Below, piece by piece: positions 1 to 56,574 of a stretch of 64,000 nucleotides of DNA; position 1 is the stretch's first letter, and the number at the start of each line of letters is the position of its first letter. The notes below the pieces were generated by a model that saw only the letters and a program-made list of their open reading frames with translations, did no database searches and was not told the origin of the DNA. The translations under genes were made by a program, and so were the position numbers. Origin of the DNA: an uncultured Phycisphaerae bacterium (GTDB taxonomy: Bacteria; Planctomycetota; Phycisphaerae; UBA1845; PWPN01); contig CALLOB010000049.1 of NCBI GenBank assembly GCA_938005315.1, positions 5,978 through 69,977 on the forward strand, in the 5' to 3' direction.

Positions 1-361
1 CCAGAAGGCCGCGAAGGTGATGAACCGCGGCAGCTTCGGGGGCCAGGGCTGCGGCGGCCTCGACCGAGGCCTGAGCCCGGCTCAGTTCGCCTTCCTCCAG
101 CTGAATGCGGGCCATCAGCAGGTGGGCATCCAGGCATGCGGCATCCAGCGCCAGGGCTTCGGCGCACTGTTCGGAGGCGGCCTGAAGCTGCCGGGCCTCG
201 AAGCTGCGCTGGGCGAGTTGAAGCTTGATCCGGGCCCGGACCTCCCGCCAGCGCTGCTCGCCCTCTTCGCGCGCGGTCTTGTGTTTTTCGCCGGCGGCGC
301 AGCCCGTCAGGAGCAACGCGGCCGGCAGCAGCCACAGGCCGATTCCCGCGACGCGCCTCAC
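1..361 (-). CDS. TPR-like lipoprotein, N-terminal part only (runs off window start); possible secretin pilotin (PilF/PilW-type)
   Basis: Not in the ORF track because there is no stop in the window. GTG at 361-359 overlaps the secretin stop (GTGA). Hand translation gives MRRVAGIGLWLLPAALLLTGCAAGEKHK..., a signal peptide with lipobox LTGC. Helical A/L/E/Q-rich TPR-like repeats follow, and the frame stays open to position 2. Confidence 0.55.
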   Translation of the reverse strand, partial: MRRVAGIGLWLLPAALLLTGCAAGEKHKTAREEGEQRWREVRARIKLQLAQRSFEARQLQAASEQCAEALALDAACLDAHLLMARIQLEEGELSRAQASVEAAAALAPEAAAVHHLRGLL

Positions 362-2271
362 GGCATCTCCTCCTCCGGCGCGGTCGCCGGCGGACGGCCC
401 GGTCCGGCGCCCTGCAGCCGTCGCACGATGAAGTCGCGTACGATGCCGCCCTCGTCCTCCGAGAGACTCTCGGCCGTCAGTTCCTCCTTGAGCTGCAGGG
501 CCGGCAGGTAGCCGGGCTTGAGATGCAGCGCCATGCGCGCATCCCACAGGGCCTTGTCCAGGCGCCCGGCGCGGCGGTGCTCGAGGGCCCACTCGTAGTG
601 GGCCACGGCCAGTCGCTCGCGGCCCTGGGGCATGAGTCCGCGGCGCAGACCGGCGCGTACCGCCTCGATTTCCGCGGCCTGCTCGGCGCCCAACTGCGCG
701 TAGGTTTCGTCGTCCTTGACGATGTGGACGGTCAGCAGAATGATGACTTCCTCGCGGCCGGTCTGGTCGGTGGTGGTGCCGAAAAGGGTTCCGGCGCCGG
801 GAAGGCTGCCGAGATAGGGCACCTGGCTGCGATTGGTCTGGGTGGCGTCGCGGAACAGTCCGCCGATGAGGATGGTGTGGCCGTCGCGGATCACGATGCT
901 GGTGGTCACCTCGGTGGTCCGCTTGAACGGCAGGTTGGACTCGTTCAGCCCGCCGCTGCTGTCCTCCGGGTGGATCTCCATGCGGATGTGGCCGTCGTTG
1001 CCGATGAAGGGCGTGAACCGCAGCTGGGTTCCGGTCTCCAGGAACTCGACGGTCTGCGTGGCCACCGTCTCGGTGACCGTGGTGGTCAGATAGCCGTCGC
1101 GCCGGCCGACGATCACCTCGCCCTGCTGACGGTTGAGGGCCAGCACCTTGGGGTTGGCCACCACGGTGGTGTCGGTGATCTGCTCCAGGGCCCGGATGAA
1201 CACCGCGACCTTGTCCTTGATCACGCCGAAGGTGAACCCGCCGTTGGGCACGAGGTTGTTGAAGTCCGTGCGCCAGGTCATGTTGGTATTGACCATCTCC
1301 GGCCGCGGCAGCAGGCCGGTGTTCAGCTCGGTGATGCCCGGCGAGACGGAGTTCAGCGTCTGGAAGTTGACGCCCGAGAGCATGTTGAAGTCGATGCCCA
1401 GCGAGTTGGCCTCGTTGAGCTGGGCCCGCAGGATCGTGGCCTCCACGAGCACCTGCCGGGGTCTGGTGTCCAGCTCGCGGATCAGCCGCTCCACCTCGCG
1501 CAGGCGGCTGGGGGTGTCGGAAACGACGATGACATCCGGACCGGTCAGGTTCATGGTCCTGGCGGTGTCGGTGCCCGAGGAGGACGAGGATGTTCCGCCG
1601 GTGGACAGCGGCACGGAGACGATCCGCCCCTCCTCGCTCAGGGCCGACTTGATCACCGGCTCGAGGTCGCGGGTGGATACGTAGTTCAGGTGAAAGACCC
1701 GCGTTTCCTGGGTCTCGCGACGGGCCGAAGTCCGGGCGGCGGCCTGTTCGGCCAGGGTCTGGACGTAGATGAAGCGTCCTTCCTCGACATAGGTGCAGCC
1801 GTTGGGCATGAGCACCGCGGCCAGGGCCTCCTCGAAGGAGACGTCAAAGAGGTCGGCGGTCACCGTGCCGGCGACGTTGGGGCTGGCGACGATGTTCCGG
1901 CGGCTCTGGACCGACAGCATGCGCAGCACGTCGCCCAGCGGCACGTCGGTGACGTGCATCTCCACGCGCAGGTCGGGACCGACGGCCACCGACCCGCGCG
2001 GCGGCGATCCGGGGGGCGGCGCGGGCTCGTCGGAATCCGGCGGCATGGGGGCCTCGTCGGACCGGGCCGACGACTCGGGCCCGGGTGCGGGGTTGCGGGC
2101 TTCGATCATTCTGCGCAGGGCGGACAGCAGCTTGTCGCTCGCGCCCGCCGATCCGCCCGCGGCCGGCTCCTGCACGGTCGCTTCGGGCGTCTGGGCGGCT
2201 CCGTCCCGGCCCAGTCCCGCGGCCAGCAGGGCCAGCAGCAAGGCCATCAGGTTGAACTTCAGTCCGCGCAT
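358..2271 (-). CDS. Secretin (GspD/PilQ family outer-membrane channel) with C-terminal TPR-like tail
   Basis: 637 aa with signal peptide MRGLKFNLMALLLALLAAGLG. STN/N-domain-like region (VTDVPLGDVLRMLS...NIVASPNVAGTVTADL). Secretin core VVANPKVLALNRQQGEVIVG...TSIVIRDGHTILIGGLF...VPYLGSLPGAGTLFG...EVIILLTVHIV. The last ~70 aa are TPR-like (AVAHYEWALEHRRAGRLDKALWDARMALHLKPGY). Confidence 0.88.
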   Translation of the reverse strand: MRGLKFNLMALLLALLAAGLGRDGAAQTPEATVQEPAAGGSAGASDKLLSALRRMIEARNPAPGPESSARSDEAPMPPDSDEPAPPPGSPPRGSVAVGPDLRVEMHVTDVPLGDVLRMLSVQSRRNIVASPNVAGTVTADLFDVSFEEALAAVLMPNGCTYVEEGRFIYVQTLAEQAAARTSARRETQETRVFHLNYVSTRDLEPVIKSALSEEGRIVSVPLSTGGTSSSSSGTDTARTMNLTGPDVIVVSDTPSRLREVERLIRELDTRPRQVLVEATILRAQLNEANSLGIDFNMLSGVNFQTLNSVSPGITELNTGLLPRPEMVNTNMTWRTDFNNLVPNGGFTFGVIKDKVAVFIRALEQITDTTVVANPKVLALNRQQGEVIVGRRDGYLTTTVTETVATQTVEFLETGTQLRFTPFIGNDGHIRMEIHPEDSSGGLNESNLPFKRTTEVTTSIVIRDGHTILIGGLFRDATQTNRSQVPYLGSLPGAGTLFGTTTDQTGREEVIILLTVHIVKDDETYAQLGAEQAAEIEAVRAGLRRGLMPQGRERLAVAHYEWALEHRRAGRLDKALWDARMALHLKPGYLPALQLKEELTAESLSEDEGGIVRDFIVRRLQGAGPGRPPATAPEEEMP

Positions 2272-2935: not shown

Positions 2936-3454
2936 ATGAACGCCAGTCGCCGGAGATTCCCGATCCGCCCGCCGCCGTGGCGGCTTGCCCTCACGCTGAT
3001 CGAGATGCTCGTGGTGCTGGTGATCATGGCCGTGCTGGCGGCGGTGGCGGTGCCGCGGTTCGGTTCGGCCGACGCCCGGCATCGTGTCGATGTCGCGGCC
3101 CGGCGGGTGGTCGCCGACCTCGAGCTGGCCCGCCAGCGGGCCCGGGCGGCCTCCGGGTATCGCTCCGTGGTTTTCGATCCGGCGGGGGCCCTCTACCGCT
3201 TGCCCGGCGTGCCCCATCCGGATCGACCGGGTTCGTCGGACGACTATACCGTGGAGCTGGGGCGCGCTCCCTATGGGGCGTCCATCATCGCCGTGGACTT
3301 CGGCGGAGACGCCACCATCGTCTTTGACGGATTCGGCACTCCCGACAGCGGCGGGGGGGTGACGATCCGCGTGGGCGGCTATACCAGGACGGTGACCGTC
3401 GATCCGCAGACGGGCAACGCCACCGTTCCGCCGGAGCCCACGGCGGTCAACTGA
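2936..3454 (+). CDS. Minor pseudopilin, GspH/FimT-like
   Basis: 172 aa. Class-III (prepilin) signal: RLA|LTLIEMLVVLVIMAVLAAVAVP with Glu at +5. Then RVDVAARRVVADLELARQRARAASGYRSVVFD, which is typical of GspH/FimT. Confidence 0.75.
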   Translation: MNASRRRFPIRPPPWRLALTLIEMLVVLVIMAVLAAVAVPRFGSADARHRVDVAARRVVADLELARQRARAASGYRSVVFDPAGALYRLPGVPHPDRPGSSDDYTVELGRAPYGASIIAVDFGGDATIVFDGFGTPDSGGGVTIRVGGYTRTVTVDPQTGNATVPPEPTAVN

Positions 3455-3463
3455 GTACCCGGG

Positions 3464-5254
3464 ATGAGCGTGGATCATCGGACATTACGGATGCGGCGGC
3501 ACGAGGCCCGCGCGGGCGGTTTGACCCCGATCGACGCGGGCGGGCGGTATGCGCCGCGCGGCTCGACCGGACGGCTCCGGTCCGGGCGGTGGAAATGGGC
3601 CGCCCCGGCCTGCCGGCGGGCGTTCACGCTTGTCGAGCTGATGGTCGGCATGGCGGTGATGAGCGTGCTGCTGGTCGGGCTGGCCTCGGCGGTGGTTATC
3701 GCGTCGCGATCGCTGCCCGGCCCGCAAAGCCGGCTGGAACGGACGGTCCGGGCCGCCGCCGCCCTGGACGGCCTGCTGGAGGACCTGAGGCTGGCGACGT
3801 GGTTCCTCGATCACACCGACACCGCCACCACGTTCGCGGTGCCGGATCGCAACGGCGACGGCCGGCCCGAGTGGATCCGTTATGCCTGGTCGGGGACCCC
3901 CGGGGACCCCCTGACCCGGCAGATCAGCGGCGGGGCGGTCGCCACCGTCCTGACCGACGTGCGGCAGTTCTCGCTGGCCCTGCTGCTGCGGACGACGCAG
4001 GAGACCTTTCCCGGCGCCGCGACGGAATCCCCGACGCTCCAGTTGCTGGCCGGTTACCCCGTGGTGCCCACCGATCCGCTGAACGATCCGGAGAAGTGGA
4101 CCATCGATCACCTGCGACATGTCAGCCAGTACGTCGAGCCGACTCTGCCGCCCGGGGCCGTGGCCTGGCGTCCGGCCCGCGTTCGATTCCTGGCCGGCAA
4201 CAAGCCGCCCGACACCGAGACGTTGCGGGTCGAGCTGCGCGAACCCGGCGTCGGCATTCGCCCTTCGACGGTGACACTGGCGGGCGTTTCGATCCCGGAA
4301 AACACCTTGCGCGGCCTGGGAAGCTGGTTCACGGTCGATTTCAACGACGTGGCCAGGCGGTCGCCGGAAGCCGGGGTCTGCATCTGCTTTCGGGGGTTGA
4401 CCGGCAGCGGCTCGCCGGCCGCAGAGCTGCGCTACGACGACCAGGCCCGGGACCGCAACGGATCCATGACCTTTTCCAACAACGGCGGCTCGAGCTGGGC
4501 CTTCGAGCCGGACTATGTTCTTCAGCACGAGGTCCGCGGCTACTGGTGGCTGCAGGGACCGCCGATCGCCGCCTCGCGACGCGCGGCCGCGTCGGTCATC
4601 GCCGCGGTGAGTACCGGGGACGCGCCTTCCGGTCGTGCCTCCGCCTCCGCCGCGGCGGCACTGCTGAACGGGCCGGAGCTGCTCAGCGGCATCTGGGAGG
4701 CGGATTTCAGCGTCCATCCATGCGAAGACCGGAACGGCAACGGCATTCCCGATTTCGGCGTGAGCAGCGGCATGATCAATCCCGCCTCGCTGGTCAACGG
4801 CGTCTGGCGGGTGGACAACGCCCTGCAGACGCTCCCCGCCAATGATTTCGCCGGGCTGACCATCGTGAAACTGCGTTTCCGCGCGACCTCCGGGGCGCTG
4901 AGCTTCCGCCTCCATGCCGACTGGGACGCCCTCAGCTGCGCGGTGATCGAGGCGTCGGTCGTGCCCGACGGCCAGGGCGGTCAGACGTTGAGGGTGTCCC
5001 ATCGTCCGGACTGGAGCACCGAGGAGCTGCTGACCGATGTGCGTTATCTGCCGCCTGATTTCGTGGAGCTGCGCCTGTTGATCGATCCCCAGCGCGATCT
5101 GGTCAACATTCGCGTCAACGAGATCGAACGCGGCACGTTCGGCTATGCCCGGATCGCCATGGCCACGGCCGACAAGTCCGCCGTGCTGTACCCGGAGGTG
5201 CCCGGGGCCGGCGAGGTCGACGATCTGTCCATCCGCGTGGCGGAGGTGCCTTGA
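3464..5254 (+). CDS. Large pseudopilin, GspJ/PilW-like N-terminus with ~400-aa C-terminal extension
   Basis: 596 aa. Prepilin motif RRA|FTLVELMVGMAVMSVLLVGLA (Glu +5). The GspJ-like part is ...FAVPDRNGDGRPEWIRYAWSG...LTRQISGG...VRQFSL. The extension has a second DRNGNGIPD loop and a beta-rich tail. The true start may be an internal Met, since the leader is unusually long. Confidence 0.65.
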   Translation: MSVDHRTLRMRRHEARAGGLTPIDAGGRYAPRGSTGRLRSGRWKWAAPACRRAFTLVELMVGMAVMSVLLVGLASAVVIASRSLPGPQSRLERTVRAAAALDGLLEDLRLATWFLDHTDTATTFAVPDRNGDGRPEWIRYAWSGTPGDPLTRQISGGAVATVLTDVRQFSLALLLRTTQETFPGAATESPTLQLLAGYPVVPTDPLNDPEKWTIDHLRHVSQYVEPTLPPGAVAWRPARVRFLAGNKPPDTETLRVELREPGVGIRPSTVTLAGVSIPENTLRGLGSWFTVDFNDVARRSPEAGVCICFRGLTGSGSPAAELRYDDQARDRNGSMTFSNNGGSSWAFEPDYVLQHEVRGYWWLQGPPIAASRRAAASVIAAVSTGDAPSGRASASAAAALLNGPELLSGIWEADFSVHPCEDRNGNGIPDFGVSSGMINPASLVNGVWRVDNALQTLPANDFAGLTIVKLRFRATSGALSFRLHADWDALSCAVIEASVVPDGQGGQTLRVSHRPDWSTEELLTDVRYLPPDFVELRLLIDPQRDLVNIRVNEIERGTFGYARIAMATADKSAVLYPEVPGAGEVDDLSIRVAEVP

Positions 5255-6105
5255 GTTCCGCGACCGTCCGACGTCCGCCCTCCCGGTGTCCGGCGCGTGG
5301 CCGCACGGCCGCAGGACGCCGGGCCCTGTCGATGGTCGAGGCGACCATCGCCTCGGTGATCGTCGGACTGCTCATGGTGGCCGCGGTCTCGGCCGCCGGT
5401 CGGGCGGCGCGGACCGGCTCCATTATCGCCGATCGGGTCGCCGGCGGGCTCCACGCCGCCGCGCTGATGACCGAAATCCTCCAGCAGGCCTATATCGACC
5501 CGGGAGCCGGCCCGGTATTCGGCCCTGAGGCCGACGAGAACCCGGCCACCCGCAGGGACTTCGACGACGTCGACGACTACCACGGCTGGAACGCCGGCCC
5601 CCCGCAGAACAAGGCCGGCGCGGTCCTGTCGGGCCTGGACGGCTGGGAGGAGTCGGTGGCCGTGGCCTGGTGCCAACCGGATAACCCCATGACCAACGCC
5701 GGCAGCGACCTGGGCGTCAAGCGGATCACCGTGACCGTCCGCCGCCGCGGGGCCGAAGTCGCCTCGCTGACGGCACTGAGGACGGCCGCTTTCAGCACGC
5801 TGAGCAATCCTCCGTCGTCGAGTTCGGACGGTAACAGTCCTCCTTCCGCAGCCTTCACCTGGCAGGTTGTCTCCGGCTCGGCCGATCTGAGCGTGTTCTT
5901 CGACGCCGGGGCCTCCGGCGATCCGGATCCCGTCGACAGCGGCACGCTGACCTTCCTCTGGGACTTCGGCGACGGCGCCGTTGCCGGGGGGCGCACCGTC
6001 ACGCACGCCTACGCCGTCGAGGGGGCCTACGTCGTGACGCTGACGGTCATCGACGGGCGGGGAGGTCTGGCCACGGTCAACCAGACCGTTGAGGTGCGAC
6101 GATGA
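5251..6105 (+). CDS. Pseudopilin (GspI/PilV-like) with Ser/Pro linker and C-terminal PKD domain
   Basis: TTG start overlaps the upstream stop (TTGA), with GGAGG 4 nt upstream. Prepilin motif RRA|LSMVEATIASVIVGLLMVAAV. Linker NPPSSSSDGNSPPSA. PKD signature FTWQ...LTFLWDFGDG...HAYAVEGAYVVTLTVIDGRGG. Confidence 0.75.
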   Translation: MSSATVRRPPSRCPARGRTAAGRRALSMVEATIASVIVGLLMVAAVSAAGRAARTGSIIADRVAGGLHAAALMTEILQQAYIDPGAGPVFGPEADENPATRRDFDDVDDYHGWNAGPPQNKAGAVLSGLDGWEESVAVAWCQPDNPMTNAGSDLGVKRITVTVRRRGAEVASLTALRTAAFSTLSNPPSSSSDGNSPPSAAFTWQVVSGSADLSVFFDAGASGDPDPVDSGTLTFLWDFGDGAVAGGRTVTHAYAVEGAYVVTLTVIDGRGGLATVNQTVEVRR

Positions 6106-7040
6106 GCGGGTGCCGCAGTCATGCCGCCGCCCGACCGGGCACTGCGTACGTCGCGGTCGTGGTCGTCGCGGCGATCGTTTCGGCCATCAGCCTGGCGGCG
6201 GTGTGGGCCGGGCGGGTCCGCCTGCGGACCGCCGAACAGGTCGCCCACGCCGCCGAGGCCCGTCTGCTGGCGTTTGCGGGTGCGGAAACCGCGGTGCAGA
6301 CCATCTCGACGGATCCCGGATGGCGAGCGAACGTTCCCCCGAATACGTATATGACCGAAAGGCAACTGGGCAACGGTCGCTTCACGTGGAAAATCGTGCC
6401 CGAACCCGAGTTCGCCGGCCAGATCAATCCGCCGGTGCGGGTTTACGGACGGGGCGTCAGGACCATGGCCGATCCACGCGAGGAAACGACGCGGATCATC
6501 AGCTTTCTGCTGAGGGCTCCGGTCGCGAATCCCGCCAACCTGCTGAGCAACCCCGGCTTCGAACGCGGCGTCTCCAAGTGGTCGGCCATGAACGGCTGCG
6601 AACTCGTCATCGAAACCAGCCCGGTTTACGCCGGGAGCCGCTGTCTGTGGGTGCATGGTCGATCCGGCGCCTCGGCCGGTCCGGCACAGTCCCTGCTGGG
6701 GCGGATCGATCGGGGCGCTTATGAAATGGAGGCCTGGATTCGTCCCACCTCATCCAACACCCGGGCGAAGTTCACGGTTTACGTCAAGGGGAGCCTTTCG
6801 ACCGGGCAATTCATCACCGACAGCACAGGCCAGGCCGTGACCACGGACAGATTCCGCCGTGTCACGATGAACGCGAATATCGACTGGTCGGGCTCGCTGG
6901 AGGAGGCCTGGGTCAGAGTCGACACCGCACCGGGGCAGCCGGTCGCAAGCTTTTATGTGGACGAAGTCGTGTTTCGCGAGAGGCCTTCGACGTCCATCGA
7001 GATCATTCCCGGTTCCTGGCGGCAGGAACTGCAGCCTTGA
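6102..7040 (+). CDS. GspK/PilX-like minor pseudopilin with C-terminal CBM4/9-type (galactose-binding-like) module
   Basis: ATGA overlap with the upstream gene. Hydrophobic N-terminus GTAYVAVVVVAAIVSAISLAAV has no Glu +5, as in GspK/PilX. PilX_N-like AEARLLAFAGAETAVQ. The C-terminal ~165 aa read NLLSNPGFERGVSKWSAMNGCELV...GSRCLWVHGR...YEMEAWIRP...FYVDEVVF, a CBM_4_9-like pattern. Confidence 0.7.
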   Translation: MSGCRSHAAARPGTAYVAVVVVAAIVSAISLAAVWAGRVRLRTAEQVAHAAEARLLAFAGAETAVQTISTDPGWRANVPPNTYMTERQLGNGRFTWKIVPEPEFAGQINPPVRVYGRGVRTMADPREETTRIISFLLRAPVANPANLLSNPGFERGVSKWSAMNGCELVIETSPVYAGSRCLWVHGRSGASAGPAQSLLGRIDRGAYEMEAWIRPTSSNTRAKFTVYVKGSLSTGQFITDSTGQAVTTDRFRRVTMNANIDWSGSLEEAWVRVDTAPGQPVASFYVDEVVFRERPSTSIEIIPGSWRQELQP

Positions 7041-7479
7041 ACCCGACAACGATTCGAGTCCGCTTTGATTTCGGATGTGGTCCACGCACCAGCCACGGCG
7101 ACCGCATGACCGGGTTTCCCGGGCCAGGCGAGACGACAATCCGTCACACACCTTTCGGTCCCATCATCCCTGAAAGCATGCTGGCCCACCCCGTGTTATC
7201 AGTTTGGATCTCCTGGTGTGTAACTCATGGAGAAAAATGAAGTTCCTGGACCTGCGAGCGGCCTTGGAAGACCCTTGTAATCAGGCTGCTGAGCGGTTTG
7301 AGCTTCAGGAGCCGAGGGCACGACGTCGATGACTACCTGAGACGTGTACAGCGGCGGCATCGTCTCCGGGTCGAGCCGGCAGACCGAGAGACCTCCGTCG
7401 AAATGCCCGGCTGTGGTTCGGCTGGCCTGATGGGATTCTCCGTCCGGGGCGGTCCGCCGACACTTGGGCGGCAAGGCGG

Positions 7480-7507
7480 TTGACAAGACGGACCTGCGGC
7501 TCTTAAT
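7480..7507 (+). promoter_or_regulatory. Candidate sigma70-type promoter
   Basis: TTGACA (7480-7485), 16-nt spacer, CTTAAT (7502-7507). It lies ~110 nt upstream of the small ORF at 7621. Confidence 0.35.
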
Positions 7508-7620
7508 CTGAAGAAGCCGTCATCTGACGCCGGTCGGCCGCGCGGCGCGGGCGGCTAGGGGTCAGATTCTGTGCCCGGTCCGGCCGGGCGAGTCAGTCAT
7601 CCCTGGCAAGGAGTGAGATC

Positions 7621-7764
7621 ATGAAGAAGGCAGGAATCGTTGCTCTGGCCGCGTTGGTCGCCATGTGCCAGTTCGGCTGCAGCGGCTGGGGTGTCGCCCA
7701 CGACGTGATCGCCCATGTCCTGGCGGTGGGCTGGACCGCCGACATGCTGAACCTGATCCCGTAA
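7621..7764 (+). CDS. Small (47 aa) secreted or lipoprotein-like peptide
   Basis: Below the ORF-track size cutoff. AAGGAG sits 7 nt upstream of the ATG. MKKAGIVALAALVAMCQFGCSGWGVAHDVIAHVLAVGWTADMLNLIP has a signal-peptide-like N-terminus and two Cys, but the lipobox is non-canonical. Confidence 0.45.
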   Translation: MKKAGIVALAALVAMCQFGCSGWGVAHDVIAHVLAVGWTADMLNLIP

Positions 7765-7792
7765 GGATCGGGGCAGCAAAAGCATACAACGG

Positions 7793-7854
7793 GCCGGCCG
7801 TCGTTCCGCGGACGGGTATGTCTCGTCCCGGTGGCGATGGCCGGCTCGTTTGTT
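7793..7854 (+). terminator. Candidate intrinsic terminator after the small ORF
   Basis: Long imperfect GC hairpin: outer stem GCCGGCCGTCG / CGATGGCCGGC, inner stem GGACG/CGTCC. It is followed by TCGTTTGTTG. Confidence 0.3.
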
Positions 7855-8030
7855 GATGGCGCATGAGGCGCTGAGACTGGACAAGGGCCCGCCCCGGTTC
7901 GTCGCCCGGGAACGTCATGGGTGATGCGGTTCGCCGGCGGGCTCAGAACCCGCCGTGTCCGCACTTCTGATTTTCCCGGTTCCGGCTGCTGATCTCCCGG
8001 TGCTTTTGCCGGATCATGCAATCGAGGAGG

Positions 8031-9055: not shown

Positions 9056-9415
9056 GGGACGCGGCGGAGCGCGTTCCGGCGGAGGGCCCCGCTCTGTCGG
9101 GGCCGTACAAGACGGCGTGCGGTTGCGGACGCGACGGAGCGCGTCCCTCCGAGGCCGTGCGACATGATGTGCGGTTGCGGACGCGACGGAGCGCGTCCCT
9201 CCGGGGGCGCAAACCGGGACGCGACGGAGCGCGTTCCGGCGGAGGGCCCCGCTCTGTCGGGGCCGTGCAAGACGGCGTGCGGTTGCGGACGCGACGGAGC
9301 GCGTCCCTCCGGGGGCCGTGCAAGACGGCGTGCGATCGAGGACGCGACGGAGCGCGTCCCTCCGGGGCCGCGCGACATGATGTGCGGTTGCGGACGCGAC
9401 GGAGCGCGTCCCTCC
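9056..9415. repeat. Cluster of REP-like GC-rich palindromic elements (7 hairpin units plus 2 copies of a second palindrome)
   Basis: GGACGCGACGGAGCGCGTCCCTCC occurs at 9127, 9179, 9287, 9340 and 9392. The variant GGGACGCGRCGGAGCGCGTTCC occurs at 9056 and 9216. The second palindrome GGAGGGCCCCGCTCTGTCGGGGCC occurs at 9081 and 9241. Stems are GGACGCG/CGCGTCC and GGCCCC/GGGGCC. The cluster is entirely intergenic. Confidence 0.9.
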
Positions 9416-9451
9416 GGGGGCGGCTTGCCGGGACTGCGGGCCGCATTGATA

Positions 9452-17434: not shown

Positions 17435-19849
17435 TCACTTGACCGCCACGGCCTCCAGCCCGCTGAGGTTTTCGACTTCGGCGGCGTAGCCTTCCGGCAT
17501 TCGCAACCGGTACTCGATCCGGTCGCGGGTCTTTTGCCAGGACAGTTCCACGACGCCGTGCACGGTGGGCACCCGGCCGGAGCAGTGTTCCAGCGGCAGG
17601 TCGGGCAGGCGGACGTGCACGCGCCGGCCGACCGGGTCGCAGGCGAAGACGCCCAGCACGTCGCGGATGAGCACATGGGCGGCGTGCGAGGCGAAGCCGT
17701 GGTTGCAGCTGGCGACGGTGTCGTTGTTTTCCCAGAGCGTGCCGGTGCGCTCGGCCATGTAGAGGTTGTAGCGCAGCAGGTCGTCCAGCATCTGCCGCAC
17801 GCGTCCCAGGCGCGAGAGGATCTCCAGCCGCAGCATGTTGCCGACGAGCTGGTTGGAGCGATGGATATCCGGCCATTCGAAGGCCGCCCGCCGCCGCGGC
17901 CCGAAGTGGTCGATCAGCAGCGTCAGCAGCCGTTCGTGGGTCTCGGGGGTCGCCACGCCGAAGTAGAACGCGTAATACTGGCAGGTCTCGGTGCGGTTGC
18001 CGGTGACGCGGAGCTCGCCGTCGACGCGCACCGCGTTATCGACGAAGAACTCGCCGTTGAACGACTGGCGGCGGACAACCTCGCGGATGCGGCCGGCCTC
18101 CTCCAGCCAGTCGCGCCGGTGGTACATGCGTCCGGCGGCCTCCAGCGCGCCGGCCCAGAGCATGTTGGTCGGGTAATTGACGTCCTGGACGAAGTCCTGG
18201 CACCTGGACCACTCGACAAAGACCCAGCTCTCGAGCTTCTCCAGCAGGCCGTCGGCGTTGCGGAACCTCCAGAAATAGTCGAACAGCTTTTCGACCCTGG
18301 GCCGCAGGCCGTCGATCATCGCGCGGTCGCCGCTGCGACGGCCGTATTCCTCGAGCTGGAGGACGAACCACATCGCCCAGTTGGGGATGAAGCTGTTGAC
18401 CCCGTGGTCGGCCGGATAGCACATCGGCAGCATGCCCTCGGGCAGGTTGGCGAACCGCTCCGGCAGAAGGTAGTTCTCCAGGAAGACCTTCTCGATGAGC
18501 GTATGCCCGTTGAGGTCGGCGGCCACTCGGGCGGTGAAGAAGCTGTCGCACAGCCAGCCGGCCCGTTCACGCGAGGGGCAGTCCATGAAGATATCCAGCG
18601 CGTTCTGGCGGAAGGTCTGCCGGGCGGCGGCGTAGAGGGTGTTCAGTCGCCCGTCCGAGCAGGTGAAGCTCGCGTGCCGGAGGTCGTCATTGGCATATTC
18701 GCGCAGGCAGACGTTCTCGACCTCGCAGGCGCCCTCCATCACCGTGAGCTCCAGGTACCGCAGGGAATACGGCTCGATGCTCTCCAGGTCGTACGTGCCG
18801 GGCGCCAGTTCGAAGCCCAGCACGTTGGAGCAGTCCATGCGCGTGCAGTCGACGACCCCGCGGTTGAGGATTTCGTCGAACCCGACCAGCAGCCGGCACG
18901 GCCCGGCGGCCCGGACCCGCAGACCGATGAAACCGGTCAGCTCGGTGCCGAAGTCCAGGACGTGGAAGGTCTTGTCCGCCAGCCGGAACCGGGCGTCGGC
19001 GCCGAGGGTCCGGTCTACCGGCTCCAGCCGGGCCGGGGCGTGCCGCAGGAGATCCGCCATCGGCAGGGCCTGAAACTCCTCGCGGGTGAATCCGCCGCGG
19101 GTGTGGTTCCATTTCATGGTCTCCAGCCAGCGCGTGGCGTCGGTTTCGTCGGCCGGAGCCAGCGTGCCGGAGGAGACATGGCGCACCGGTCGAATGACCG
19201 CATAGGCCGGATACGGTACGCGCCGCGGCAAAAGCCGGACCGGCTCCAGCACCGCGCAGGCCGCCGGTTCCGGGGCGGCGGCCGGGTCGAGCCGCCAGGC
19301 ATCCCAGCCGGGCCGGAGGCGATAGCTCTCGCTGAACGCCCGCTGGTGGCTGTAGCGCTCGACCTTCCGCACGCGGGTGTCCAGCACCGTGGCGACAAAG
19401 CCGCCCTCGACGCCGGTGGCGGCCAGCACGCGCCCGTCGGCGGCGACCTCGGCCTGCAGGAACGGCGGCTGATGGGGCACGTAGTAGGTGTTGACGTTGA
19501 ACGCCGAGACCTCCACGGCCACGACGCTCGGCCCGGGGGCCAGCAGGCCGGTGAGGTCCAGTTCGTCGACCCGGAACCATCCGTGCGGCCCCCGCGCCGG
19601 CCCGTGCCCGGCGAACCGTCCGTTGACGAACACCCGGTAGATCGAGCACCCGGTCAGGGTGAGGACGGTCCGCGAGCCGGCGGGGGCCTCGATCACCGCA
19701 CGGAAGCCGACCAGCAGGTTCATCTCTTTTTCCAGCCCCTCCGGCCAGACGGGGCGGGCGGCGCGGAATACAGGCGTTTCGTCTCCGGCCATGGCCGCGA
19801 TACCGCCGGCAAGTGCGAACCCGATCAGGCCCATGCTGAAGGGCGACAT
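17435..19849 (-). CDS. Glycoside hydrolase, alpha-L-rhamnosidase-like (GH78 six-hairpin)
   Basis: ATG at 19849 lies 6 nt after GGAGGA; the track start is a TTG two codons upstream. Signal peptide is present. FTCSDGRLNTLY...IFMDCPSRERAGWLCDSFF...ESWVFVEWS matches the GH78 catalytic-domain pattern. Confidence 0.7.
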   Translation of the reverse strand: MSPFSMGLIGFALAGGIAAMAGDETPVFRAARPVWPEGLEKEMNLLVGFRAVIEAPAGSRTVLTLTGCSIYRVFVNGRFAGHGPARGPHGWFRVDELDLTGLLAPGPSVVAVEVSAFNVNTYYVPHQPPFLQAEVAADGRVLAATGVEGGFVATVLDTRVRKVERYSHQRAFSESYRLRPGWDAWRLDPAAAPEPAACAVLEPVRLLPRRVPYPAYAVIRPVRHVSSGTLAPADETDATRWLETMKWNHTRGGFTREEFQALPMADLLRHAPARLEPVDRTLGADARFRLADKTFHVLDFGTELTGFIGLRVRAAGPCRLLVGFDEILNRGVVDCTRMDCSNVLGFELAPGTYDLESIEPYSLRYLELTVMEGACEVENVCLREYANDDLRHASFTCSDGRLNTLYAAARQTFRQNALDIFMDCPSRERAGWLCDSFFTARVAADLNGHTLIEKVFLENYLLPERFANLPEGMLPMCYPADHGVNSFIPNWAMWFVLQLEEYGRRSGDRAMIDGLRPRVEKLFDYFWRFRNADGLLEKLESWVFVEWSRCQDFVQDVNYPTNMLWAGALEAAGRMYHRRDWLEEAGRIREVVRRQSFNGEFFVDNAVRVDGELRVTGNRTETCQYYAFYFGVATPETHERLLTLLIDHFGPRRRAAFEWPDIHRSNQLVGNMLRLEILSRLGRVRQMLDDLLRYNLYMAERTGTLWENNDTVASCNHGFASHAAHVLIRDVLGVFACDPVGRRVHVRLPDLPLEHCSGRVPTVHGVVELSWQKTRDRIEYRLRMPEGYAAEVENLSGLEAVAVK

Positions 19850-20111
19850 GTGCAATCCTCCCCGGCCGACCGGACCGGTTCCCCGCCGGGCATGACTGGC
19901 GTGGATTCCCCAACGCCCGTCCGGCGCGGTGCGACCGGCACCGGCCCGGCGGCAGCGGCATGGTATCCGAACCCCCGGACCGGTCCAACGCGTGCGCCTT
20001 GACCGCCGCGTTGCCGGTTGGGTCTAATGCCCGGCCTGCAGACGCCCGCCGGGCGGGTCGCATGGACCGGTCCGGGCGGGCCGGCAACCGGCTGTTCACC
20101 GAGGAGTGATC

Positions 20112-33515: not shown

Positions 33516-34148
33516 ATGGTCACAGGCGCGCCGATGCAAGAGCGACTGCGTGACGGCAGGGTCGGAGCTGCTGCCGGCGGATTGGCCCTCACCCAAGCGG
33601 GCGGGCACCCGGCCGACGCCCGCGCCTTCGACCGGGCCGATCTGCTGCCGGCCCACCTGCTGGACGGCGACGAGATCGTGATTCTGGCGATCAAGCCGTC
33701 GCTGTGGTTCGTGGTGTTCGTATCCGCCCGCTGGGTCACGGCCATGGTCATGGTGATGGTGCTGGCCGAGTGGCTCAGTGCCGGGATTCCACCCCTGCGT
33801 CCCGAGCTGGTCATCCGCGGGGCGGCGGCCCTTGCGGGGGCCCGGCTGGGTCTGGGGATGCTGCAGTGGGTCTCGCACCTGTACGTGTTGACCAACCGGC
33901 GGGTCCTGCGGCTGCGCGGGATCTTCAACGTCGATCTTTTCGAGTGTCAGCTGACCCGCATCCAGCACACCTATGTCACGCTCGCCTGGTACGAGCGGCT
34001 GGTCGGGGCGGGGACGATCTGGTTTTCGACCGCCGGCGCGCCGGGGACCCAGGCCGCCTGGCGGCATGTGGCCCATCCGCTGGAGATTCACGAGCAGGTG
34101 CGGTCGGCGGTCAACAGGTCTCAGCGGCCGGGGTCCAGCAGCGTCTGA
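33516..34148 (+). CDS. Membrane protein with bacterial PH (bPH_2/YdbS-like) domain
   Basis: Two TM helices (LWFVVFVSARWVTAMVMVMVLAEWL) are followed by YVLTNRRVLRLRGIFNVDLFECQLTRIQ. Confidence 0.6.
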   Translation: MVTGAPMQERLRDGRVGAAAGGLALTQAGGHPADARAFDRADLLPAHLLDGDEIVILAIKPSLWFVVFVSARWVTAMVMVMVLAEWLSAGIPPLRPELVIRGAAALAGARLGLGMLQWVSHLYVLTNRRVLRLRGIFNVDLFECQLTRIQHTYVTLAWYERLVGAGTIWFSTAGAPGTQAAWRHVAHPLEIHEQVRSAVNRSQRPGSSSV

Positions 34149-34183
34149 AGCGCCGGCGTGCGGCCCGTCGAGAAGGAGCGACC

Positions 34184-35203
34184 ATGGTCATCATCGATTC
34201 CTACCCGCTGGCGGTGTTCATGTGCGTGATCACGATGTTGTGCTGGGGTTCCTGGGCCAACATGCAAAAGCTGGCCAGCAAGGAGTGGAGGTTCCAGCTG
34301 TTCTACTGGGATTATGCGATCGGCGTGCTGCTGCTGACGGTCGTGCTGGCCTTGACCATGGGCAGCATGGGCGCAGGCGGCAGGAGCTTCTTCGACGATC
34401 TCGGCCAGGCTCAGGGGCGGTTCATCCTCTCGGCGCTGATCGGCGGGGCGGTATTCAACGTGGCCAACATCCTGCTGGTGGCGGCCATCGACATCGCCGG
34501 CCTGGCGGTGGCCTTTCCGGTGGGCATCGGCATCGCCCTGGTGTGGGGGGTGATCACCACATACCTGACCCGGCCGGCGGGCAACCCGGTGCTGCTGTTT
34601 GTGGGCGTGGGCTTCGTGGCGGCGGCGATCCTGATCAACGCCGCGGCCTACCGGCGGCTGCCGTCGTCGGGCCAGCGGACCACGGGCAAGGGGCTGGCCA
34701 TTTCGGTCGCCGCGGGCGTGCTGATGGGATTCTTCTACCGGTTCGTGGCCGCATCCATCGTTGAGATCGGCCGCATCGCCGATCCCGCGGAGGCCGGCAA
34801 GCTCACGCCGTATACCGCGCTGGTGTTTTTCGCCCTGGGGCTGTTTCTGTCCAACTTCGTGCTGAACACCGCGGTGATGCTGCGGCCCTTCGTCGGCGAT
34901 CCCGTGCCGCCTCTGGATTACTTCCGCCGGGGCAACCCCCGCCTGCACCTGATCGGTATCGTCGGCGGAGTGATCTGGAGCATCGGCATGTCCTTCAGCA
35001 TCCTGGCCGGCGACAGCGCGGGTTACGCGATCTCCTACGGTCTGGGCCAGGGGGCGACGATGGTGGCGGCGCTGTGGGGCGTCTTCATCTGGCGCGAGTT
35101 CAGGGCGGCGCCGCAAGGCACGAACGGGCTGCTGGCGCTGATGTTCGCGTGCTTCGTCGGCGGGCTCGGTCTGATCGTCTACGCCAACGCGGGAGCCCAA
35201 TGA
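34184..35203 (+). CDS. DMT-superfamily sugar porter (GRP/RbsU/RhaT-like)
   Basis: GAAGGAG RBS and an internal ATG in frame with track ORF 33704..35203. There are ~10 predicted TM segments. It sits immediately upstream of ribokinase. Confidence 0.6.
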   Translation: MVIIDSYPLAVFMCVITMLCWGSWANMQKLASKEWRFQLFYWDYAIGVLLLTVVLALTMGSMGAGGRSFFDDLGQAQGRFILSALIGGAVFNVANILLVAAIDIAGLAVAFPVGIGIALVWGVITTYLTRPAGNPVLLFVGVGFVAAAILINAAAYRRLPSSGQRTTGKGLAISVAAGVLMGFFYRFVAASIVEIGRIADPAEAGKLTPYTALVFFALGLFLSNFVLNTAVMLRPFVGDPVPPLDYFRRGNPRLHLIGIVGGVIWSIGMSFSILAGDSAGYAISYGLGQGATMVAALWGVFIWREFRAAPQGTNGLLALMFACFVGGLGLIVYANAGAQ

Positions 35204-35213
35204 GGGGGGTTTC

Positions 35214-36137
<924 letters not shown>

Positions 36138-42973: not shown

Positions 42974-44662
42974 TCACCTCGTCAGGCCGCGGGCCCGGTC
43001 ACGGATGGCCAGAAGGTCCTTCATGACGTTGTGCAGCGACTTGCGGTACGCGGCGGTGCCGAAGGCGTCGTGCAGCTGGCGGTAGAGCTCGAACAGCCGG
43101 TCATAGACCGCGTGGCGCCGCCGGTCGGGCCGGTAGACGGTTTTCTTCAGCCCGCACATCCTCGCCTGGGCGGCCTGGACCGAGTCGTAGCCGCCGGCGG
43201 CCCTGCCGGCGACGACGGCGCCGAAGATCGCCGCCCCCAGAGCGCAGGTCTGGGCCGAGCGGCTGATCCGCATCGGCCGGCCGGTGACGTCCGCGTAGAT
43301 CTGCATGACGAAGGGGTTCTTCTCGGCGATTCCGCCGCAGTTGATGACCTCGCGCACCTTCACGCCGTATTCCTCGAGCCGCTCCATGATCACCCGGGCG
43401 CCGAAGGCCGTGCCCTCGACCAGGGCGCGATACACCTCCGCGGGCGTGGTATGCAGCGTCTGGCCGACAAGCAGGCCGGTCAGGCGCGGATCGACCAGCA
43501 CCGTGCGGTTGCCGTTGTTCCAGTCCAGGGCCAGCAGGCCGGAGGCTCCCGGCGCGATCCGGGCCGCTGTGGCCGACAGCTCGGCGTGGGCCCGCTCGCC
43601 CCTGTCGAAGTAATTGACCCACCAGTTGAAGATATCGCCCACGGCCGACTGGCCGGCCTCCAGCCCGAAGAACCCCGGCACGATCGAGCCGTCCACGATC
43701 CCGCAAAGTCCGGGAATGTCGGGCAGCGGGCGGTTGTTGGGATGGATCATCATGTCGCACGAGCTGGTGCCCAGGATCTTGACCAGAGCCCCCGGTTTGA
43801 TGCCCGCGCCGACCGCGCCGAGGTGGGCGTCGATCGCCCCGACGGCCACGGGAATGCCCGGCGGCAGCCCCAGACGGCGGGCCCATACCGGACAGAGCTC
43901 GCCGGCCCTGGTGTCGGAGGTGTAGGCCTTCTGGAACGTGCCGTTGCGCCGCAACTCGCCCAGCCGGCGGTCGATGCGGGCCAGGAAGTCCGCCGCCGGC
44001 AGCGACCACTTCTCGTGATACATGGCCTTGTGGCCGGCCGCACAGACGTTGTGCTTCCATGTGGCCGGGTCGGCGTTGCCGGTGAGCACCGCCGGGATAT
44101 AGTCGGATTGCTCGACCCAGTAACGCGCCGCTTTCATCACCTTCGGCGCGACCCGGATGCAGCGCAGGGCCTTGGACCAGAACCACTCGCTGCTGTAGGT
44201 GCCGCCGCATTTGGCGAGGTACTCCGGGTGGACTTTCGCGGCCGCGGCGGTGATCTCGGCGGCCTCGGCGAAGGAGGTGTGGTCCTTCCACAGCCAGGCC
44301 TGGGCGTTCAGGTCGCGGCGGAAGGCCGGCAGATCGGCCAGGGCCCGCCCGGAGGCGTCCACCGGCAGCGGCGTGCTGGCGGTGGCGTCCACGCCGATGC
44401 CGATCACGTGCCCGGGAGAAAAACCGCGGACCTTCGCCGCCGAGCGCAGCGCCGCCTGCGTGCAGCGTGCGGCCGCCGCCAGCCAGTCCGCCGGCCGCTG
44501 GCGGGCGACGTTGGGATCGCGCGGGTCCAGCAGGATCCCGGCCTGGCCGCCGGTGTAGCCGGCCACGGCGGTGGCGATCTCCTCGCCGGTCCGGCAATCG
44601 ACGATCAGGGCCCGTGCCGAGTTGGTGCCGAAGTCGAGGCCCAGAGCGTAGGCGCCTGGCAT
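42974..44662 (-). CDS. araB: Ribulokinase (FGGY family)
   Basis: Internal ATG at 44662. YALGLDFGTNSARALIVD, GGTYSSEWFWSK, GLEAGQSAVGD, NCGGIAEKNP. Confidence 0.8.
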   Translation of the reverse strand: MPGAYALGLDFGTNSARALIVDCRTGEEIATAVAGYTGGQAGILLDPRDPNVARQRPADWLAAAARCTQAALRSAAKVRGFSPGHVIGIGVDATASTPLPVDASGRALADLPAFRRDLNAQAWLWKDHTSFAEAAEITAAAAKVHPEYLAKCGGTYSSEWFWSKALRCIRVAPKVMKAARYWVEQSDYIPAVLTGNADPATWKHNVCAAGHKAMYHEKWSLPAADFLARIDRRLGELRRNGTFQKAYTSDTRAGELCPVWARRLGLPPGIPVAVGAIDAHLGAVGAGIKPGALVKILGTSSCDMMIHPNNRPLPDIPGLCGIVDGSIVPGFFGLEAGQSAVGDIFNWWVNYFDRGERAHAELSATAARIAPGASGLLALDWNNGNRTVLVDPRLTGLLVGQTLHTTPAEVYRALVEGTAFGARVIMERLEEYGVKVREVINCGGIAEKNPFVMQIYADVTGRPMRISRSAQTCALGAAIFGAVVAGRAAGGYDSVQAAQARMCGLKKTVYRPDRRRHAVYDRLFELYRQLHDAFGTAAYRKSLHNVMKDLLAIRDRARGLTR

Positions 44663-44754
44663 GAGCTGCCTCCCGAATGAAAGGAACTCTGATTCACGGT
44701 CCGGCGGCCCGGCCATTCCGTGCCGCGCGGCCGGCGGCCTGCCGGGTCGTCCGT

Positions 44755-54603: not shown

Positions 54604-56067
54604 TCAGCCCGGCGGCTTCATGCAGGACAGGATCTCGGACACCGACACGATGGCGATGCTCGTGGCGCTGTCGGCCATGGCGTAGGGGATGATCAGCCGG
54701 TCGCCGTGCAGCAGCGCCCCGCAGGAATACACCACGTTGGGCACGTAGCCGTCGCGTTCCTCCTCCGTCGGCACGATCAGCGGGTCGTGCAGCTGGCCGA
54801 TCACCCGCGAGGGATCGTGCAGGTCCAGCAGCGAGACGCCGATGCTGTAGCGGCGCATCGGTCCGACTCCGTGGGTCAGGAGCAGCCAGCCTTCCGGCGT
54901 CTCGATGGGCGAGCCGCAGTTGCCGATCTGGAAGAATTCCCAGGGGAACCTGGGTTCCTGCAGCCGCACCGCGTTGTTCCAGAAGCGTACGCTGTGCGAA
55001 TGCATCAGGTACATGCTCTCGCCGTCCAGGCGCGACACCATCAGGTACCAGCCGCCGAGCCGGCGAGGAAAAAGCGCCAGGCCCTTGTTGCGGGCATAGA
55101 TGCCGCGCAGGGTCGTCATGCCGATGTACTCGAAGGCCCGCGTCTCCATGAGCTGGGGCATGATCCGTGTGCCGTCGTAGGCCGTGTAGGTGCCGTAGTA
55201 CCAGGTCGATCCGTCGTCCTCCGTGAAGCGCACCAGCCGCATGTCCTCGATGCCGGCCTTCTCGCTGTCGGACACAGGAAAAATCACCACTTCCGCCGGG
55301 TCCACGCCCGGCTCCAGCCACAGCAGGTAATTGGATCGCGCCAAGCGCAGGAGCACTTCGGCCGCCCGGTCGTGGGCCTCGGCCTCGGCTCCGGCCGGGC
55401 GGTCTTCCGCCGCCGCACGCTGCAGGTCCTGGTAGGTGAACTCCTCCGGCAGGCGGTCCAGGATGGCCTGGCCCTCGTCGCTGAAACCGCCGGTCTCGAT
55501 CAGCTTCAGGAAGAAAGTCTGCTTGTCGTAGGGATGGGTTCGCAGCGGCTTGAGCCCCCGTGTGAAGCGGCTGGGCGGATCGAAGCGAATGTCGCCGTCG
55601 GCGGCGATCACGCCGGTGCGGAACACGATCGACGACACATGACCCTCACCCGTGGCCCGCAGGCTCATGATGAACCGCACGGCCCCCGAAGGCAGCCCGC
55701 TCTGGTCCGGCGCCGGAACCATGGACGGATTGAACAGCGCTGCGGCCTCGATGGCGTACTCCATGGTGAAATGCGCCCCGATGAGCAGCTGCCGCGTCGG
55801 GCTGACCGGCGTGCCGTCCAGGAAGCTCTCCACCTCGGCGAAGTTGTGCCGCCAGCTGGTCTCGATGTCGCGGTGACGGTGGCCGAAATCACGCTTCAGA
55901 TCCGCCAGCGCCTGTTCCGCCTCCTTCTCCGGGAGGCTCATGATCCGGGCGATGATGGCCCGCGTCCGACGCTCATCGCCGGGCGTGAACAGCCGGGTGA
56001 TCACGCGGTGCCGGTTGGGCGCGAACGTCTGCCCCCAGCGTACGACTGTCGGTGTCCTCCGCGGCAT
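54604..56067 (-). CDS. GH130-family glycosidase/phosphorylase with N-terminal helical extension
   Basis: GSPIETPEGWLLLTHGVGPMRRYSIGVSLLDLHDPSRVIG...GYVPNVVYSCGALLHGDRLIIPYAMADS. Start chosen at the Met after GAGGTG; the track ORF upstream part is Arg/Pro-rich noise, and an alternative start lies at 56142. Confidence 0.7.
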   Translation of the reverse strand: MPRRTPTVVRWGQTFAPNRHRVITRLFTPGDERRTRAIIARIMSLPEKEAEQALADLKRDFGHRHRDIETSWRHNFAEVESFLDGTPVSPTRQLLIGAHFTMEYAIEAAALFNPSMVPAPDQSGLPSGAVRFIMSLRATGEGHVSSIVFRTGVIAADGDIRFDPPSRFTRGLKPLRTHPYDKQTFFLKLIETGGFSDEGQAILDRLPEEFTYQDLQRAAAEDRPAGAEAEAHDRAAEVLLRLARSNYLLWLEPGVDPAEVVIFPVSDSEKAGIEDMRLVRFTEDDGSTWYYGTYTAYDGTRIMPQLMETRAFEYIGMTTLRGIYARNKGLALFPRRLGGWYLMVSRLDGESMYLMHSHSVRFWNNAVRLQEPRFPWEFFQIGNCGSPIETPEGWLLLTHGVGPMRRYSIGVSLLDLHDPSRVIGQLHDPLIVPTEEERDGYVPNVVYSCGALLHGDRLIIPYAMADSATSIAIVSVSEILSCMKPPG

Positions 56068-56177
56068 GGATCCGCACCTCGCCGCAACATCCGGGCCCGG
56101 CGACCGGGCTTCTTCGACCGTCCGGACCGCGCCCTCTATCATCGGCCGGTCCGCGCCCCCGTCATCAAGGAGCCGGT

Positions 56178-56453: not shown

Positions 56454-56538
56454 CCGCGCGTCGCTCATGAGAAGTGCGCGGGTCACGGACAGCCACGGAC
56501 GCAGGGCAACTCACGATCGCGCTTCGGGCACAAGGAGT

Positions 56539-56574
56539 GTGCCCCGCCGGAAGGGGTGACTTCCAGCGGGGCAC
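56539..56574. other. Strong 15-bp hairpin between convergent genes, with a competing upstream pairing partner
   Basis: GTGCCCCGCCGGAAG-GGGTGA-CTTCCAGCGGGGCAC has one mismatch. The left arm GTGCCC can alternatively pair with GGGCAC at 56526-56531. Confidence 0.6.

Follow-up and report, generated by a model that had tools for sequence, protein, structure and literature searches.

What could a carbohydrate-binding module (CBM) be doing on a subunit of a type IV filament machine? The question is raised by a gene of an uncultured Phycisphaerae bacterium (Planctomycetota; NCBI GenBank assembly GCA_938005315.1), located in a stretch of 64,000 nucleotides (contig CALLOB010000049.1, positions 5,978 to 69,977 of the forward strand) that was analysed as a whole and is here called the window; all coordinates refer to it. 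A reading made from the sequence alone had described the interval 6531-7040, which is the last 170 codons of a 312-aa open reading frame (ORF 6102-7040, plus strand; nucleotide 6531 is codon 144), as part of a GspK/PilX-like pseudopilin fused at its C-terminus to a CBM-like domain, in an architecture that it did not know to be described. Analysis of the protein, its relatives and its neighbours indicates that the gene very probably encodes a K-type minor pilin, i.e. one in the GspK/PilX position, with an inserted module of CBM fold.

A single gene in a large family

The ORF is open from its ATG at 6102 to the stop codon at 7038-7040, and the ATG overlaps the stop codon of the upstream gene (5251-6105) by 4 nt. 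The frame is marked as coding by its GC content at third codon positions (GC3, 0.79), which is about 0.79 in the pilin and CBM parts alike, compared with 0.86-0.87 in the three upstream pilin genes; the value for the gene is also lower than that of most genes in the window (0.84-0.93). In public assemblies, an identical protein and two orthologues (312/313 aa) of approximately 74% identity have been called as single genes, with conserved neighbours.

When 1.84 billion representatives were searched exhaustively with HMMER, 1717 matches were obtained at E<=1e-3. Among the best 150 of these, about 110 have a length of 280-345 aa and align over their full length, corresponding to about 110 clusters at 50% identity; the family alignment used below consists of the target and 108 of these representatives (109 sequences, 25-34% identity). 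The members are mostly annotated as hypothetical proteins or unnamed in public databases, and the labelled relatives are metagenome-assembled genomes (MAGs) named Planctomycetales and Phycisphaerales only. A scan of species-representative genomes found a single close relative, a MAG labelled uncultured Planctomycetales.

The sequence-only reading had allowed that the CBM-like region might be a separate or mis-predicted ORF. This is ruled out by the single open frame, the identical public gene call and the 108 full-length homologues, and every coordinate and peptide that had been quoted is present in the translation of ORF 6102-7040. An Rfam scan of the target region gave 0 matches and a scan for promoters and terminators gave a background level only; interpretation of the region as an RNA element or terminator was dropped on these grounds.

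A beta-sandwich of the CBM_4_9 type

Residues 144-295 are a beta-sandwich of the CBM_4_9 type. Pfam family PF02018 (CBM_4_9) matches residues 145-257 (E=2.4e-7, 31.6 bits, against a curated gathering cut-off of 25.9 bits) and is matched by all 109 of the aligned family members (best E=1.7e-20). In searches of the PDB, a profile of three close orthologues identified CBM22-1 of Paenibacillus Xyn10C (E=7e-8), and the profile of all 109 sequences identified the CBM22 tandem of Xyn10C (4xup, E=2.9e-25), the single CBM22-1 (3e-15), CBM16 (4e-13) and CtCBM22-2 (1dyo, 8e-13). An AlphaFold2 model built on the 109-sequence alignment (predicted local distance difference test score, pLDDT, 94.4; predicted template-modelling score, pTM, 0.77) was used throughout, a 3-sequence alignment having reached a pLDDT of only 44. 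The top match of this model in a Foldseek search of the PDB was again CBM22-1 (4xup/4xuo, E about 3e-11, template-modelling score, TM, 0.81 normalised to the target), with CBM22-2, CBM16, CBM4-2 and CBM61 ranking next; the structures 1h6x and 2zey superposed at TM 0.77 and 0.75, respectively. Thus, the proposal of a CBM4/9/22-type beta-sandwich was borne out by the PF02018 search and by the predicted structure, and a chance resemblance of motifs is ruled out by agreement of the Pfam, PDB profile and fold searches.

The module shares its Pfam family and fold (TM 0.81) with the CBM22 and CBM16 modules of xylanases and mannanases (4xup, 1dyo, 2zew), as well as an N-terminal motif N-x-G-F-E-x-G…W and a C-terminal motif F-x-x-D-D, but is about 20% identical to them and forms part of a pilin, not of an enzyme. 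Outside the pilins, its nearest relatives in the representative search belong to GH10, GH8, pectate-lyase-like, SLH-anchored and BACON-containing proteins (E about 1e-40 to 1e-34 for the GH10, GH8 and pectate-lyase-like proteins), which places its kin in genuine carbohydrate-active contexts. Conserved within the family are Arg187, Gln196, Tyr207, Trp212, Trp251 (Phe in the target protein) and Trp262, candidate residues that could form a binding site different from that of CBM22.

An N-terminal module of the GspK/PilX kind

The protein begins with a leader followed by a hydrophobic segment that has no Glu at position +5 (MSGCRSHAAARPG↓TAYVAVVVV…, the arrow marking the predicted prepilin-peptidase site). 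The corresponding family signature is R-R-[G/A]↓[S/G/T/A]-x-Y-[V/L/I]-x-V-L: position -1 is Gly in 74 and Ala in 15 of 89 family sequences, position -2 is Arg in 81 of the 89, position +3 is Tyr in 100/100, position +5 is never Glu, and an acidic residue occurs anywhere in positions +1 to +22 of only one member out of 102. Absence of Glu5 is a hallmark of GspK and PilX (PMC9934059). In the AlphaFold2 model, alpha1 is a helix of 58 residues (13-70; pLDDT mostly >90) whose first half is hydrophobic; after it come one short helix (74-77) and sheet strands at residues 87-89/92-100, 112-121 and 128-138. Solved pilin structures generally lack alpha1N; a profile of the N-terminal domain (N-domain) found nothing meaningful among PDB sequences (a chance match to CD4, E=0.78).

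Family models point most often to GspK. The NCBIfam model T2SS_GspK is matched over its first ~60 positions by 32/45 isolated N-domains (best E=3.1e-7), whereas Verru_Chthon cassette protein A is matched weakly by 7/45 and PilX_N (PF14341 / COG4726) weakly by 3/45 (best E=4.9e-4). PilX_N also matches weakly one relative that lacks the CBM (E=1.7e-3, 18.7 bits against a threshold of 25.5), and has no match in the target protein itself in the Pfam search. Alignment of the N-domain profile by hhalign gave E=3.8e-4 over 94 columns for GspK of E. coli K-12, compared with 0.36 for GspJ and 0.26 for GspI. One family member is named "Tfp pilus assembly protein PilX" in IMG.

The module is inserted before a conserved tail

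When K proteins of different lengths are compared, the CBM proves to lie within the pilin, inserted after the beta-sheet and ahead of a conserved tail, so that the earlier description of a C-terminal fusion has to be revised. In bare forms of 160-162 aa (loci L037 and L047), the pilin module is joined straight to the tail (…GTWRQEV); in forms of about 300 aa, the CBM lies between the two; in forms of about 430 aa, an unrelated insert of about 270 aa occupies the same site and is followed by the shared tail; and forms of about 580 aa found among the proteins of the representative search (P0133, P0134, P0146 and P0155) also hold CBM_4_9. The N-terminal module and the tail (family consensus VPGTWRRE, shared pattern GTWRxE) are common to all four forms and are collinear in the alignment. 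Because the tail directly follows the pilin module in the bare relatives, it is part of the pilin module and not of the CBM.

The pilin and CBM modules diverge at similar rates (29-35% mean pairwise identity) and thus appear to evolve as one unit. A one-off shuffling event or a recent transfer of the CBM is unsupported, given this similar divergence and the uniform GC3 of about 0.79.

The ~430-aa forms (L038:10001-11317, L040:3894-5216, L045:2237-3544, L054:9959-11245 and others) all sit in complete E-F-PilM-PilN-…-G-H-J-I-K operons. Their ~270-aa insert is rich in Gly, Thr and Asn, has a conserved NFNP(P/S/T)G(T/A)PY motif and is followed by the tail GTWRWE; it matches no Pfam domain apart from one weak match to bactofilin, and may be a beta-helix.

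Minor-pilin operon and related machinery

The three genes upstream of the target all encode prepilin motifs with Glu5 (Table 1), and the arrangement is conserved: a metagenome scan identified 49 related loci, in which gene order was established by tblastn and judged only where the flanking sequence sufficed, and all loci with enough flank have the order H, J, I, K, with K always the last gene. Assignment of J versus I is by size and position only. A homolog of the secretin encoded divergently from the operon is found at the equivalent position in 8 of 11 CBM-type metagenome loci with enough upstream sequence; the secretin of the window scores 210 bits with the NCBIfam model of PilQ and 201 bits with that of GspD, each under its cut-off.

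Relatives whose K protein lacks the CBM end complete operons (E-F-PilM-PilN-O-P-G-H-J-I-K) that encode an ATPase, a platform protein, a PilM-like protein, PilN, the products of two further genes and a major pilin ahead of the H-J-I-K set. This machinery scores alike as GspE/PilB, GspF/PilC and GspG/PilA, so the scores do not decide between a type II secretion system (T2SS) and a type IVa pilus (T4aP). The term "pseudopilus" used in the sequence-only reading, which implies a T2SS, is therefore not established, whereas a minor pilin is supported.

Two of the other minor pilins are also enlarged. The PKD domain at the C-terminus of minor pilin 3, matched in only some related loci (e.g. L014), would make this protein a second modular pilin of the predicted tip complex; its start differs among public gene calls, which give 257, 280 or 284 aa. 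Minor pilin 2 has about 400 aa of additional sequence beyond its N_methyl motif, for which no Pfam match and no PDB sequence match was found. Homologs of minor pilin 2 are only about 370 aa long where K has the ~430-aa form, the matches ending near residue 345, and locus L012 has the gene in two tandem copies.

Taken together, the protein architecture and the operon define a large and broad family in Planctomycetota.

Proposed role at the filament tip

In a type IV filament machine, the target protein would be the fourth minor pilin, a cap-type subunit equivalent to GspK in type II secretion and to PilX in type IVa pili. After cleavage by prepilin peptidase, the four minor pilins would form a priming complex that ends at the filament tip. 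K would top this complex because, lacking Glu5, it allows nothing to be added above it; HIJK sets are described as priming assembly and staying at the tip, with K as cap (PMC9934059). Since the CBM is inserted at the distal end of K, it would be displayed at the very tip, where it may bind a glycan chain (of a polysaccharide substrate, a surface or a matrix) and so provide the filament with a carbohydrate-specific means of adhesion or capture. The occurrence of other modules at the same insertion site in related operons suggests that the K family serves as a plug-in tip adaptor. We consider this mechanism as a whole, that of a cap-type fourth minor pilin presenting a glycan-binding surface at the filament tip, to be moderately likely.

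Several observations weigh against it. The T2SS_GspK model (NF037980) scores only 16.7 bits with the whole protein and 18.8 bits with the N-domain, against a cut-off of 130; the similarity to GspK/PilX is limited to the alpha1 segment (model positions 3-61); and N_methyl models (PF07963 / TIGR02532) have no match in the target at E<=1, the F-x-x-x-E core being absent. The xylan-binding residues of CtCBM22-2, which we take to be Arg25, Trp53, Tyr103, Tyr136 and Glu138, correspond in a HMMER alignment to Met163, Ser191, a variable loop, Arg272 and Asp274, positions that are not conserved in the family. For the CBM16-like domains of some alginate lyases, carbohydrate binding has not been demonstrated and a role in folding is possible (PMC5651945). 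Genes for an ATPase, a platform protein and a major pilin are absent from the window, and filament assembly, the tip position and the orientation of the CBM are steps that we infer.

What these points imply differs from case to case. The T2SSK alpha-domain has no Pfam match in the target or the family and is not present in the AlphaFold2 model; together with the sub-threshold scores and the missing N_methyl motif, this places the protein outside the GspK and PilX families as their models define them, although it sits, and would function, like GspK/PilX. Strict membership of GspK is ruled out by the missing alpha-domain and by scores far under the threshold; the part of the sequence-only reading that survives is a minor pilin in the GspK/PilX position. 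With these presumed CBM22 contacts replaced, the canonical CBM22 cleft would probably not be retained, and recognition of a ligand in the manner of CBM22 is unlikely. In view of the missing ATPase, platform and major-pilin genes, the CBM-type H-J-I-K set looks like, and probably is, an accessory tip set with its own secretin, the core machine being encoded elsewhere.

Alternative explanations

If the protein were instead a true T2SS GspK, its CBM would cap a short periplasmic pseudopilus and contact cargo such as glycosylated proteins or glycan-loaded carbohydrate-active enzymes, or else bind a nascent exopolysaccharide that the pseudopilus pushes piston-like through the secretin. This fits T2SS_GspK as the best N-terminal family match, the match of the first operon gene to GspH, an adjacent secretin that scores nearly as well for GspD as for PilQ, and a related ATPase, platform protein and major pilin that score as GspE, GspF and GspG; minor pilin 2 also has a weak match to HpsB, a pseudopilin of hormogonium polysaccharide secretion, and there is a speculative proposal that pseudopilins act as a piston when slime is secreted through PilQ/GspD (PMC12475490). 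The same machinery, however, scores equally as PilB, PilC, PilM and PilA, related operons have PilM/PilN-like genes, and the Pfam and NCBIfam scans found no GspC, GspL or GspK alpha-domain. In addition, no polysaccharide synthase or export genes adjoin the operon, and a tip module of about 150 aa together with a PKD domain and a 400-aa extension of J would seem bulky for a periplasmic piston. We consider a true GspK unlikely. More radically, the protein might have no part in a filament: as a bitopic protein of the inner membrane, with its uncleaved N-terminal helix as anchor, it could hold the CBM in the periplasm, for example as a sensor or retention factor for imported oligosaccharides, as the missing N_methyl and TIGR02532 motifs, the weak N-terminal similarity to GspK and the predicted nature of leader processing would permit. 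That K is invariably last, after three canonical Glu5 prepilins or after G-H-J-I in the complete operons, makes such a protein very improbable, as do the strict conservation of Gly or Ala at position -1 (89/89) and a predicted fold in which a long helix packs on a four-stranded sheet, as in pilins; the missing Glu5 is itself expected of a K/X subunit.

A different doubt concerns the CBM rather than its carrier. The fold may not bind carbohydrate but serve as a structural or protein-binding cap, for example docking to the secretin, the large J protein or a non-pilin adhesin, or stabilising the tip as the GspK alpha-domain does. The variability of the presumed CBM22 ligand positions would be in keeping with this, as would the occupation of this site by an unrelated module of ~270 aa in other relatives, as if only bulk were needed, the existence of bare K forms and the precedent of the CBM16-like domains mentioned above. 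Conservation of PF02018 above its curated threshold in 109/109 members argues otherwise, as does the close relationship to the CBMs of GH10, GH8 and pectate-lyase-like enzymes, and the conserved polar and aromatic set from Arg187 to Trp262 could provide an alternative site; a non-binding cap therefore seems quite unlikely to us.

Returning to the glycan-binding tip, one further step can be imagined, in which a retractile type IV pilus tipped with the CBM would act as a "fishing line" that catches polysaccharide and reels it to or through the secretin into an enlarged periplasm. The CBM on K, the PKD domain on I and the large domain of J would form the set of tip modules, and interchangeable modules would tune the range of substrates. 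We regard this scheme as improbable. Planctomycetes have pili-like fibres to which dextran binds, and they seem to take up polysaccharides as whole polymers (PMC5394234). A link of the operon to these fibres is an attractive possibility, and the scheme, if true, would supply a molecular basis for both the polysaccharide-binding fibres and whole-polymer uptake. The genes for the secretin, H, J, I (with PKD) and K (with CBM) are a candidate gene set for these hitherto molecularly unexplained phenomena (PMC5394234).

Comparison with known minor pilins

In common with PilX and with GspK of the enterotoxigenic E. coli GspI-J-K tip complex, the target is the product of the last of four minor-pilin genes, has a leader with Gly at -1 and lacks Glu5 in alpha1N; in common with GspK, it has an extra domain within the pilin fold, that of GspK being an insertion (PMC8179133). 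It differs from GspK in the nature of the extra domain, which is not the T2SSK alpha-domain but a CBM beta-sandwich located immediately ahead of the C-terminal tail. Compared with both GspK and PilX, its pilin module is smaller (about 130 aa plus the tail), has an invariant Tyr at +3 and scores far under the thresholds of their models. The gene order of the operon is H-J-I-K, in contrast to H-I-J-K (J and I being assigned by size and position).

The earlier statement that such an architecture had not been described does not hold, since modular pilins with carbohydrate-binding modules have been published (PMC8179133, PMC9934059, PMC11623550), and the concept of sugar-binding pilins at the tip is already known in other bacteria. 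Modular pilins number more than 1,200 proteins in 264 architectures, carbohydrate-binding modules included (PMC8179133). In Streptococcus sanguinis, PilC has a ConA-like lectin module, is a proven lectin and is part of a tip complex, and PilB has a vWA module (PMC9934059, PMC8179133). Those two proteins have canonical class III signal peptides and the IPR012902 motif, and their modules are appended C-terminally via linkers, whereas the target combines a Glu5-less K-type carrier with a CBM_4_9 inserted before the pilin tail, in a diderm host of the Planctomycetota. With respect to the definition of a modular type IV pilin, the target has the pilin module and a non-pilus functional domain, but not the IPR012902/N_methyl motif.

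One listed precedent combines IPR012902 with IPR003305, the latter of which we take to correspond to PF02018. Dataset S1 of the modular-pilin census contains seven proteins of this architecture, "IPR012902 - IPR003305" (N-methylation motif and Carbohydrate-binding, CenC-like; PMC8179133). They are listed with the same pair of parts as the target, but carry the canonical N-methylation motif that the target family lacks. The minor pilins PilX1 and PilX2 of Saccharibacteria (TM7x) have lectin-like C-terminal domains with a proposed role in glycan-mediated binding (bioRxiv, PMC11623550), and the model of PilX1 was aligned to the cellopentaose-binding CBM_E1 (5KLE; PMC11623550). These are proteins of monoderm episymbionts with L-type lectin-like and PLL-type propeller folds, unrelated to the H-J-I-K-plus-secretin operon; glycan binding is likewise only proposed for them.

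What is new in the present family is thus the Glu5-less K-type carrier, the inserted CBM_4_9, the site of module swapping, the operon linked to a secretin and the broad distribution in Planctomycetota. What a type IV pilus or pseudopilus comes into contact with is determined by the minor pilins at its tip. The present family has no N-methylation signature and is therefore missed by censuses of modular pilins based on this motif, so that the diversity of tip adaptors is underestimated. Should the module bind a defined glycan, it would offer a simple handle on pilus-mediated capture of polysaccharides in environmentally important polymer degraders.

Other features of the window

Several genes predicted to act on carbohydrates are scattered through the window (Table 1). 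They fit a polysaccharide-degrading lifestyle, and none is linked to the pilin operon.

Table 1. Positions of the target gene, its parts and neighbouring or carbohydrate-related genes in the window (↓, predicted cleavage site)
Feature	Position	Strand	Evidence
Secretin, 637 aa, divergent from the minor-pilin operon	358-2271	-	Pfam Secretin E=2.8e-37, Secretin_N E=1.6e-10
Minor pilin 1, GspH/FimU type, 172 aa, …RLA↓LTLIEMLVV (Glu +5)	2936-3454	+	Pfam GspH E=1.2e-6; NCBIfam GspH E=5.5e-12
Minor pilin 2, GspJ/PilW position, 596 aa, RRA↓FTLVELMVG (Glu +5)	3464-5254	+	Pfam N_methyl E=3.5e-7
Minor pilin 3, GspI/PilV position, 284 aa, RRA↓LSMVEATIA (Glu +5)	5251-6105	+	Weak N_methyl; conserved third gene
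PKD domain at C-terminus of minor pilin 3, residues 195-282	5833-6096	+	Pfam PKD_4 E=7.1e-16
Target gene, K-type (GspK/PilX-position) minor pilin with inserted CBM, 312 aa	6102-7040	+	Single ORF
Basic leader ending in Gly13 (MSGCRSHAAARPG↓T), predicted prepilin-peptidase site	6102-6140	+	Family statistics
Pilin module, alpha1 helix and four-stranded sheet	6141-6515	+	AlphaFold2 secondary structure; GspK-type N-terminal matches
Inserted CBM_4_9 / CBM22-like beta-sandwich, residues 144-295	6531-6986	+	Pfam; PDB profile search; AlphaFold2 and Foldseek
C-terminal tail (…IIPGSWRQELQP), residues 296-312, predicted short strand 307-309	6987-7037	+	Conservation; bare and ~430-aa relatives
Alpha-L-rhamnosidase-like	17435-19855	-	
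Sugar permease with PfkB kinase	33704-36137	+	
FGGY kinase	42974-44716	-	
GH130 mannooligosaccharide-phosphorylase-like	54604-56574	-	

Downstream of the target gene, a gene-poor stretch of about 1 kb (7041-8030, GC 0.63) contains an ORF of 47 aa (7621-7764, plus strand; MKKAGIVALAALVAMCQFGCSGWGV…) with a signal-peptide- or lipoprotein-like N-terminus. The predicted peptide is 82-91% conserved in close relatives (L003-L007) and absent from more distant loci, and approximately 380-415 nt around the ORF are 79-84% identical at the DNA level in L003 and L005. The product may be a small lipoprotein of the envelope; a pilotin-like role would be pure speculation.

Farther downstream, upstream of a 2-hydroxyacid dehydrogenase gene, an intergenic tandem array (9098-9422) of about six GC-rich units of ~52 bp (74% matches), each containing the palindrome GACGCG…CGCGTC, is the source of long spurious ORFs on both strands and looks like a repetitive extragenic palindromic (REP)-type element.

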